This document shows positions 39,668 to 41,908 of a DNA stretch of 64,000 bases, piece by piece. Made by a program: the position numbers and the translations under genes. The DNA is from Candidatus Uhrbacteria bacterium (GTDB lineage Bacteria; Patescibacteriota; Patescibacteriia; JACQRZ01). Below the pieces are notes generated by a model that did not search any database, was not told the DNA's origin, and was given only the letters and a program-made list of their open reading frames with translations. The stretch spans positions 7,143-71,142 of the forward strand of contig JACPMJ010000005.1 in assembly GCA_016186045.1 (NCBI GenBank), given 5' to 3'. Position 1 is the first letter of the stretch, and each line of letters opens with the position of its first letter.

Positions 39668-41908
39668 TTAGGAGAGACTGAATACGAGATTATCCAGACT
39701 TCCAAGTAGGAACGGAGTATCACTCAGTGCGCACGCGGCGATTTTTTCGCACGTGAGTGAGGTGAGTGATGCCGTGTATCTTTCTTTGGACGGTACGGGA
39801 CTTTCCTTCAACTCCTGCTGTGCCTCCTCGCACAATGGAAGGTGAATGGCGAGATGCTCGCCGCCAAAGGAGATACCGAAGGCGCTGGCGTCAGAAGGAT
39901 TCAGCCGAATCGCTTCACCCCAATCTTCCCTCCGGGAGAGATGCATACGCATGGGAACGTATATGTCGGAATACGTCGCAAGGACCATGTGGTGATCCAT
40001 GTATGCCGACATCATCTCGAGGATATACGGTTCGAGTACTCCGCCTTCGAGCAAAACACCCGCCTCCTTTACGGTCATTGCTCGGCCGTCGGCGACAATC
40101 GTACTCATGATGATCGGTTTGAGAAGTTCAGTCGCGATAGTGGTCGGGATTCCCAGCATCTTTTTTTGAAGAGAGGGATCCGGCACACACACCGCGGTTG
40201 CGGAATAGTCTACCCGCCGCTCATAGAAGTCTCTCGCGGCATTATCGATCTCCATATCGATACTCTGAAGAAGACGGCCAAATGAACCCTGGAGTGTGGT
40301 ATTGCGCATCAGCGTTTCTACCGCCTCCTGTACCATTTGGCACTCGTTTCTGATGATGATCTCTGGGGCACCCATCTCCATCAGACGACTGACACGATTA
40401 TTCCTACCGATAATGCGTCGATACAGATCGTTGAGATCTGATGTTGCGAAAGTTTTTGCATCGTATCGGACCATCGGTCGGAGGTTGGTGGGCAGAACCG
40501 GGAGATTGCGTATAAGGAAGCGTGAGATATCAACCCCTCGCTCCATGCACACGCTCTCGAGTGCCGCCACTCCCCAGTCGCTTGGTTCGGCATCGTCATC
40601 ATCATCCACTATGGATCGTTTGTAATCGATGACAGCGAGAATGCCCTCGATATCTCCGATGCCGACTTGTGCAATAGTTTGTGCACATTGCAGCTTGAGC
40701 CATGGATGGACAACCGGAATCGCAAGTTTGATATGACCAAACCTGCTATTCGGTGCCAAGTGTGTATCAACTTGGACGCCGCACTTCATGCACGTGATAC
40801 CCTTATGCCTGATGCCCTCGAGTCTGCCACAACTGCACTTCAGATCTCGGCCGTTTCCGAAGATCGCCTCGCAGAAGAGACCTTCGTGTTCTGGCTTCAA
40901 TGTTTTGTAGCTGATGGTCTCTGGACGTTTTACCTCGCCGTGTGACTGCTTGACGATCTGCGCATCGGTTATGCGCATGATATGTAGAGCACCATCTTCA
41001 ACTTTCGTTGAGAAACCGCACCCAACCATCAATGTTGCAAGTCGATGTGCGGAGTGAGTCGGTGGTGTTTCCAATGCGGGGACGGGATTTCGGAGAAGCA
41101 ATGCTTCATATGCTGTTGCTCGCGCGCGTATGCCGCTTGATTTGACCATAGCCATTTCCACAGCGTTCTGTACGTATCCGAGGTGCGCAAACTTTTGGAT
41201 GTTGACCTTTTGTCCTGGATTTGGATGTTCCGATAGGGGCTGTTGAGTGACTAGGCTATACCGTCCAGTCGAACGTCCAGCCAACTTGTCTTCCATGCGC
41301 CGCGTTATTTTCGTGAGTTTCACGGCACGAAATGCAGGACCATCCGAATCCGGAACTGGAAGTCCCTTGAGGATATCAGCGTCTGGATGGACGAGAATAT
41401 CCGTACCAAAGGAAAAGCATCCCTTGGCGCTGAACCCTGCTACGACCAAGGTATGGCCGTGGTTATCATTAAGGACATCGCCGACAGCCAGCTTGCGCTG
41501 GATGAGGAGGTCGATGGTTACGACCTTACCCTTGTTGAAATCCTTGATCTCTACGTTTGTGACCAACGCCTCATCCCGCTGTTTTGCGATCGCGACGATG
41601 GGTTGTGTCTGGGCAAGCGTTGCGGCGAGTACCGAGCGCTGTGCGACTTTCGTACCGACCATCACTACGCCATTCTTATCCAGATTCGCACCCGGAAAGT
41701 ACCCCTCGAAGTCTGCGGGTTTTGCGCTTTTTGCCGGCGCATCGATAGAGAATGGTGACTGGCGCTCCAGAAGCGCGGTGTCAAACCGCCCCTGATCGCG
41801 CACCTCCTCTGATACGATGCAGGCGTTGCCGGTCAGCTGCGGATATGTCCGCAGAAGGTTTTTTCCGGCTATTCGGAGTCTGAGTCTTGATTTCCCATCC
41901 AGGATCAT
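39668..41908 (-). CDS. RNA polymerase clamp-module homolog: RpoB C-terminal-like region fused to RpoC N-terminal-like region, catalytic residues not conserved
   Basis: [14 protein letters not shown] (beta), [27 protein letters not shown], zinc finger CSCG...CMKCG, [19 protein letters not shown] clamp helices, [18 protein letters not shown] replaced by AYMDHHM. Confidence 0.6.
   Translation of the reverse strand: [746 protein letters not shown]

Follow-up and report, generated by a model that had tools for sequence, protein, structure and literature searches.

A stand-alone RNA polymerase β–β′ fusion protein with a degenerate active centre in a Candidatus Uhrbacteria genome, and its relatives

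The DNA analysed here (the window) is a stretch of 64,000 nucleotides from a Candidatus Uhrbacteria genome (GenBank assembly GCA_016186045.1, contig JACPMJ010000005.1, positions 7,143 to 71,142). ORF calling on this 64-kb window defines an open reading frame (ORF) of 746 codons with an ATG start on the minus strand (39,668–41,908), embedded in a GC-rich island and followed immediately by a vipr gene. Its product, deposited as “hypothetical protein HYW94_00850” of Ca. Uhrbacteria (an identical NCBI entry), is related to the two large subunits of bacterial RNA polymerase (RNAP). Few machines in biology are conserved as strongly as multisubunit RNAP and, to our knowledge, bacterial paralogs of its catalytic subunits are very rare. 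Positions 38,487–42,052 of the window, which include both ORF boundaries, recur without a difference in a Logan assembly made independently from the same sample. Full-length rpoB and rpoC are absent from the 64-kb window, in which the largest other ORF has 809 codons; given the essentiality of these genes we infer that the host also possesses true rpoB and rpoC.

A preliminary description of the window, made from its letters, had given the ORF these exact coordinates and read it as the C-terminus of RpoB followed in one reading frame by the N-terminus of RpoC, without the catalytic box. All motifs that it cited are found in the translation, and the homology holds at E-values far beyond chance. 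Pfam RNA_pol_Rpb1_1 matches with E=5e-40, Rpb2_6 with E=6.5e-8 and Rpb1_2 with E=7e-10, the last over only the first ~43 of the 166 model positions. β′ chains of the PDB match in two blocks (residues 314–437 and 466–701, E~1e-72) while β chains match the N-terminal 324 residues (E~4e-9). The β-like part does precede the β′-like part in a single frame. Alignment of the 746-aa protein with rpoB and rpoC of E. coli gave the following map, which includes the putative expression signals (all on the minus strand):

41,982..42,011, minus: promoter-like TTGACA-18-TACATT, ~75 nt upstream of the ORF (consensus match only)
41,915..41,920, minus: Shine-Dalgarno sequence AGGAGG, 6 nt 5′ of the ATG (sequence match)
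39,668..41,908, minus: whole ORF, putatively catalytically dead RNAP β(C-part)–β′(N-part) fusion (profile, PDB and fold evidence)
41,009..41,908, minus: β-like segment, aa 1–300, collinear with E. coli β ~780–1342, flap-domain fold kept
41,447..41,482, minus: degenerate counterpart of β GDKMAGRHGNKG, aa 143–154, with K1065→V and K1073→T (alignment)
41,234..41,281, minus: retained β C-terminal motif, aa 210–225 (alignment and PDB β chains)
39,794..40,996, minus: β′-like segment, aa 305–705, E. coli β′ ~18–480 with the 150–215 region shortened
40,781..40,837, minus: zinc finger CSCG...CMKCG, in which C358, C360, C373 and C376 correspond to β′ C70/C72/C85/C88 (alignment)
40,307..40,501, minus: lid and clamp helices (...QEAVETLM), aa 470–534 (alignment)
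39,836..39,883, minus: catalytic loop, predicted dead, aa 676–691, D-D-D triad replaced by S-G-E (HMMER and MAFFT)
39,671..39,811, minus: family-specific tail, aa 700–746, 47 residues without counterpart in β′
39,632..39,655, minus: terminator-like 9-bp GC-rich hairpin GGGTTCGAC...GTCGAACCC followed by a T-run, 13 nt past the stop codon (sequence)

The β-like part, whose identity to E. coli is 21–41% depending on the region, carries heavy deletions that had been overlooked in the preliminary description. Residues 1–95 correspond to β ~780–885, the flap base. A flap-tip helix (β 891–912) is deleted or replaced and a linker of ~40 residues stands in place of β ~1080–1230, NPLGVPSRMN included, while β 1232–1342 is kept. 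From there the chain passes directly into β′ 18–150, that is the zipper and the zinc finger. The clamp helices are 64% identical to those of E. coli, with R502, E522 and A529 at the positions of β′ R275, E295 and A302. The rudder is shortened but KRVDYS is retained; the basic switch-2 stretch KGKQGRFRQN is missing and NRAPTLHRLG is deleted. The counterparts of the catalytic aspartates are S680 (D460), G682 (D462) and E684 (D464), in both the HMMER and the MAFFT alignments. The claim that the catalytic box is missing thus stands, but its position had been misassigned: the peptide held to replace it aligns with E. coli β′ ~412–424 (EVIREHPVLLN). The true counterpart lies at residues 678–689 and the ORF, which had been said to stop soon after the box, goes on for 57 residues. 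Its tail is a variant of a consensus found in relatives, L..LD..LLG (see below), and the same variant occurs in the relative P0139 (LGLLDQLVFSTK). The bridge helix, trigger loop, lobes, jaw and the whole downstream half of the enzyme are absent. Judged from these alignments, the protein keeps both barrels in degenerate form, the double-psi barrel being apparently dead, and we infer that it is catalytically inactive and unable to polymerise RNA. AlphaFold2 run with the family alignment predicts a fold without disordered segments (mean pLDDT (predicted local distance difference test) 87.2, pTM (predicted template modelling score) 0.84).

The only in-frame stop of the ORF is the terminal one. The other two sense frames contain 27–29 stops and shuffled sequences 32.6 on average. 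GC content at the three codon positions follows the order GC1>GC3>GC2 in all segments, including the eroded β-like part. The terminator-like hairpin stands between the ORF and the vipr transcription unit. Together with the predicted fold and with a family of the same architecture (see below), these features support the preliminary view of a maintained protein rather than a decaying pseudogene, and the ORF is best described as expressed-looking and, on the structure model, foldable. Note that a 19-nt direct repeat TA(T/C)TGTCAAGGAGCTGTAC is present just upstream of the ORF (42,003–42,021 and 42,155–42,173), the proximal copy containing the promoter-like TTGACA. A 21-nt inverted repeat (42,018–42,038 and 42,137–42,157, 90%) is found in the same region, and the repeats bracket ~100 nt with a GC hairpin at 42,054–42,073.

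An exhaustive HMMER search of 1.84 billion representative proteins led to at least 38 relatives, verified by retrieval and alignment. They are ~700–950 residues long and match the query in one collinear stretch up to its last residues. Apart from the identical entry, the closest one shares 41% identity with the window protein. The relatives share the start near β ~780, the deletion of β 1080–1230, the deletion of NRAPTLHRLG, and an end point ~50–60 residues past the degenerate catalytic loop with the tail motif L..LD..LLG. Conservation, also at positions that contact sigma, was counted over 27 aligned relatives. None of them has the Asp triad D-D-D, while the four zinc-finger cysteines are found in all 27. 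Residues equivalent to β′ R275, E295 and A302 in the clamp helices are kept in 23, 23 and 17 of them, respectively. A flap-tip helix (EE.LL.AIFG; F906/G907), missing from the window protein, is present in ~21 of the 27. The Cys4 motif is not universal beyond the 27 aligned sequences, as the high-GC member P0328 (locus L003, GCA_003358065.1) has lost the zinc finger entirely (GLFCKEAFGPLHSTERRTQLAHIEL). Relative to genuine β′ subunits, the family retains 0.69–0.81 of the identity to E. coli in zipper, zinc finger, lid and clamp helices, but only 0.30–0.42 in switch-2/rudder, NRAPTLHRLG and the catalytic loop. This pattern is the opposite of that of real polymerases: the docking regions are kept and those of the active centre eroded, which points to selection on outer docking surfaces and fold and not on the active centre.

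Six relatives carry in addition the C-terminal domain of RNAP α (α-CTD) fused at the C-terminus of the dead β–β′ protein (P0142, P0163, P0167, P0213, P0260 and P0263; loci L011, L012 and L013; all named sources are Myxococcota). Pfam A_CTD is detected in four of the 27 aligned sequences (best E=9.8e-22) and in two more; P0163 further adds Sel1/tetratricopeptide (TPR) repeats. Named hosts of the family are Ca. Paceibacterota, one Planctomycetota metagenome-assembled genome and Myxococcota (Sandaracinus, Polyangiaceae). This distribution over bacteria of the candidate phyla radiation (CPR), Planctomycetota and Myxococcota suggests that the family has spread horizontally. The deposited names are “hypothetical protein” or “alpha C-terminal domain-containing protein”. 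In a neighbour-joining tree of the β′-like region, genuine β′ subunits, drawn from many phyla, group tightly together; the family members without exception fall outside this cluster on branches several-fold longer (split 88/100), P0131 and P0228 appearing the least derived. NCBIfam holds no model dedicated to the family, whose matches to rpoB and rpoC models are all far below cut-off. No description of the family was found in the open-access literature, nor is there one of inactive paralogs of RNAP catalytic subunits in that literature, Pfam or NCBIfam. It is apparently an undescribed, old and fast-evolving family of stand-alone genes.

Nine candidate relatives (P0002, P0003, P0010, P0047, P0104, P0120, P0121, P0292 and P0315) were rejected: they are real rpoB-rpoC, with an intact NADFDGDQ, whose gene calls are frameshifted or incomplete. 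Such artefactual “β–β′ fusion” proteins are frequent in metagenome catalogues, where frameshifted calls run over adjacent rpoB-rpoC genes of high-GC contigs. They show long Arg/Pro/Ala-rich out-of-frame stretches and are easily mistaken for real fusions. Word-index searches with the window protein returned only the identical NCBI entry and thousands of true β′, and a short query only short fragments. Matches in phage records were contaminating bacterial rpoC or jumbo-phage β′ and were discarded; a scan of viral contigs with the window protein found nothing. Genome and metagenome scans yielded one locus each, the metagenomic one being only the 1.4-kb contig of P0139.

Comparison with known systems sets the protein apart from all of them. 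It shares with bacterial RpoB/RpoC the collinear β C-terminus and β′ N-terminus and retains zinc finger, zipper, lid, clamp helices and flap fold, but it has only about a quarter of their combined length and lacks the triad, the active-site lysines and the basic switch-2 stretch. It scores 282 bits against the RpoC model TIGR02386 (cut-off 963.5) with an incomplete Rpb1_1–Rpb1_5 set, the zinc-finger Cys4, lid and clamp helices being present and the NADFDGD triad absent. The score against the RpoB model TIGR02013 is 33 bits (cut-off 801), and neither GDKxxxRHGNKG with K1065/K1073 nor NPLGVPSRMN is found. Models of fused β/β′ (NF007172, NF011417) give 257 bits (cut-off 5372). The signature of two-barrel polymerases, barrels with DxDxD and conserved Lys/Arg, is lacking as well. 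The single-chain or split two-barrel RNAPs of phages (YonO of SPβ, the non-virion enzymes of AR9/phiKZ, those of crAss-like phages, P23-45 gp96) are active, have DxDxD and are only distantly related, whereas the window protein is putatively inactive and close to bacterial β/β′ (up to 64% in the clamp helices). Another close system is chain A of PDB 3qqc, in which RNAP subunits b and a′ form one chain crystallised with archaeal Spt proteins; we take it to be a stand-alone clamp, engineered and in complex with Spt4/5. This artificial construct is limited to the clamp, while the window protein is natural and has also the flap domain and both degenerate barrels. Natural β/β′ fusions (Helicobacter/Wolinella, Wolbachia, Ca. 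Adlerbacteria) have the same collinear junction in one chain, but they are complete (~2800–2900 aa versus 746 aa). They show that the β–β′ junction tolerates a peptide link (PMC11515920). By descent the protein thus belongs to the RNAP β/β′ superfamily, but it fails the tests for RpoB, RpoC, fused and two-barrel polymerases because the catalytic residues are missing, the length is only a quarter and the scores stay below threshold. It works like nothing characterised and represents a conserved pseudo-enzyme lineage of multisubunit RNAP.

Nine genomic contexts of family genes were examined, the window included. In each the gene is stand-alone and the neighbours differ (recG/hemerythrin, murG/murC, recR-ybaB-dnaX, ruvC, an S1 protein, a TPR protein, DUF4058/metallo-β-lactamase). 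The 221- and 446-aa genes upstream of the L010 member were considered as conserved partners equivalent to the 231- and 487-aa pair of the window, and rejected as unrelated. No sigma, NusG or α gene was found by motif in the 64-kb window. In low-GC contexts (window, L008, L010, L014), at least two of which are CPR (window and L008), the family gene lies 3–9 GC points above its flanks, while its GC content matches the flanks in high-GC Myxococcota and Planctomycetota hosts. This difference suggests transfer from high-GC lineages into CPR genomes. At the Planctomycetota locus L005 the family gene is preceded by a DUF4058 gene and appears frameshifted in that assembly, split over ORFs 7,818–10,343 and 10,007–10,519. 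A 716-aa protein with a double metallo-β-lactamase fold follows at 10,500–12,650 (plus strand) with overlapping stop and start codons.

In the window the ORF belongs to an island (38.4–45.1 kb) with a GC content of 0.512 against 0.449 elsewhere, in agreement with the preliminary description, which had noted a GC-richer island with other unknown genes (two ORFs are indeed orphans). The remaining features of the island, and one related array outside it, are the following:

44,360–45,055, minus: orphan ORF, 231 aa (ORF list)
42,702–44,165, minus: orphan ORF, 487 aa (ORF list)
39,423..39,487, minus: candidate vrRNA of 13 GGYNN units in the vipr leader (repeat scan)
38,716..39,381, minus: vipr, 221 aa, RAMP-like, immediately downstream of the RNAP-like ORF (PDB and PHROGs)
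38,591..38,650, minus: second candidate vrRNA of 12 GGYNN units, downstream of vipr (repeat scan)
57,805–57,869, plus: third, orphan array of 13 GGYNN units, 18 kb from vipr (repeat scan)

The vipr product matches PDB 36pp “SUSP1 Vipr protein” (E=3.4e-11, aa 123–188) and phrog_4652 (E=2.6e-19, aa 3–188). VIPR systems were defined as a RAMP-like Vipr with vrRNAs of 9–16 GGY/NN pentamers flanking vipr (bioRxiv 10.64898/2026.04.26.720920). Their loci usually have one accessory gene (vap1-6), and they silence transcription of competing mobile elements through RNA-guided binding of double-stranded DNA with a 1-nt-skip rule (2026 preprints including bioRxiv 10.64898/2026.04.26.720920). The 221-aa gene and its flanking arrays fit this definition, the upstream array being located between a promoter-like site (39,605–39,576) and the Shine-Dalgarno sequence of vipr, and the locus appears, as judged from its sequence, to be a complete-looking VIPR locus in a CPR genome. 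Similar GGYNN arrays accompany the Vipr homolog of viral contig L004. No recognised vap gene is adjacent to vipr and no helix-turn-helix, nuclease or helicase gene adjoins it. PADLOC returned no defence-system match for any island gene and Rfam no known RNA within the island. The 487- and 231-aa ORFs have no match in Pfam, PHROGs, PADLOC, NCBIfam or phage records (for the 487-aa ORF, also none in the PDB); one or the other might be the actual VIPR accessory gene. Candidate targets of the vrRNAs do not exceed the shuffled level in the window, and viral contigs contain neither an exact target nor a related tail. The third array shares with the upstream vrRNA the 3′ end GGCACGGTAAGGTAGGGC and an ATTC(G/A)AA tail. 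A TTGACAAAA motif resembling that of the vipr promoter precedes it by ~70 nt, but its 22-nt spacing to TATACG leaves the array without a canonical promoter.

In RNAP, sigma region 2 and NusG/Spt5 NGN domains dock mainly on the clamp helices, sigma region 4 and NusA dock on the flap tip, and UP elements, activators and NusA are contacted by the α-CTD. The family would thus gather the protein-docking hubs of the polymerase and discard catalysis. We tentatively favour, with a probability of about 0.45, that its members are non-catalytic docking platforms that bind, store or titrate initiation or elongation factors. They would present the clamp-helix surface to sigma region 2 and NGN domains of the NusG/Spt5 type, most relatives would also offer a flap-tip helix to sigma region 4 and NusA, and some would add an α-CTD. 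Factors bound in this way would be held or titrated, the protein acting as regulator, reservoir or decoy; the sigma decoy suggested in the preliminary description falls within this reading. Loss of the flap-tip helix restricts the predicted partner surface of the window member to the clamp-helix/zinc-finger side. The proposed action resembles that of anti-sigma factors (Rsd, FlgM, T4 AsiA), which occupy the core-binding surfaces of sigma, but the known ones resemble RNAP neither in sequence nor in fold, whereas in the present case the docking surface of the core itself, in homologous copy, would do the binding. A more elaborate version is improbable: a pseudo-core would carry sigma region 2 on its clamp helices (in most members also region 4 on the flap tip, with α-CTD contacts to UP elements), and the resulting non-transcribing pseudo-holoenzymes would occupy promoters or store sigma; in the Uhrbacteria island a VIPR system may have co-opted it as an accessory protein of a seventh type, one that links binding of DNA under RNA guidance with seizure of the host's machinery for transcription initiation.

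Several points weigh against a docking platform. Across the nine contexts, genes for sigma, anti-sigma, NusG or NusA do not recur beside the family gene. The window member, with its flap tip gone and its β-like part the most eroded, may be degenerating. Clamp-helix conservation could reflect folding constraints instead of partner binding, and long-branch attraction could inflate the apparent monophyly of the family. The pN/pS ratio of 0.26 for the sole close pair available, which concerns another family member, rests on nine substitutions only, too few to carry weight.

The same surfaces could serve as a sponge: flap and clamp would soak up phage RNAP inhibitors or small molecules targeting RNAP and so shield the real enzyme. 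We consider this unlikely, since family genes lie in housekeeping contexts rather than in defence islands and have no PADLOC match, the switch-2 segment, which belongs to the antibiotic pocket, is degenerate, and no effector is attached. Recruitment as a new vap of the adjacent VIPR, where a Vipr-vrRNA filament would bind DNA and the dead polymerase would help silencing by capturing sigma or blocking RNAP, is suggested by the position of the ORF, which lies directly upstream of vipr with its flanking 12–13-unit arrays and shares strand and GC-rich island with it. VIPR loci typically combine vipr with one accessory gene and act by transcriptional repression, and the remaining island ORFs are orphans. 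However, none of the eight other family loci has a GGYNN array, the genes upstream of the L010 member are unrelated to the island genes (vipr included), and the viral Vipr-homolog locus L004 lacks an RNAP-like gene. None of the six published vap families is RNAP-like. The ORF has its own promoter-like site, a terminator precedes the vipr promoter, and the two genes differ in third-position GC content (0.57 versus 0.73), all of which makes this recruitment rather doubtful.

The preliminary description had also raised a remnant of a transferred rpoBC junction. A neutral relic, a still-open fragment of a horizontally acquired or duplicated rpoB-rpoC junction, would agree with the compositionally foreign island, the erosion of the β-like part, the lack of a close relative and the lost flap-tip helix. 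An open frame of 2.2 kb at such divergence is not expected by chance (shuffled sequences average ~33 stops), canonical expression signals are present, the predicted fold is confident from end to end, and truncation points, deletions and C-terminal tail are common to at least 38 proteins of three phyla. The relic is already largely refuted and we regard it as very improbable. Least credible is that the protein is still an enzyme, either a non-canonical two-barrel polymerase or nuclease using other residues or a subunit of a split polymerase with unlinked partners. The Asp triad is found in no member, the β lysines, NPLGVPSRMN, NRAPTLHRLG, bridge helix, trigger loop and downstream half are absent, and no conserved partner genes were found in the examined contexts.

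If the docking platform is real, the family, a conserved, stand-alone and catalytically dead copy of just that half of RNAP to which sigma, NusG and NusA dock, would add to the transcription regulators a new class that imitates the core enzyme. It would also offer a natural minimal scaffold on which to study how the clamp interacts with sigma and NusG. The range of VIPR systems, themselves only recently described, is widened by the window to a CPR genome, and the adjacency of the two genes raises the testable possibility that RNA-guided silencing is linked with an RNAP mimic. Elsewhere in the island, the 487-aa ORF has at its 5′ end an 11-nt tandem repeat AAATTTCAATG (2.6 copies, 44,124–44,152), which is also palindromic and could be operator-like.

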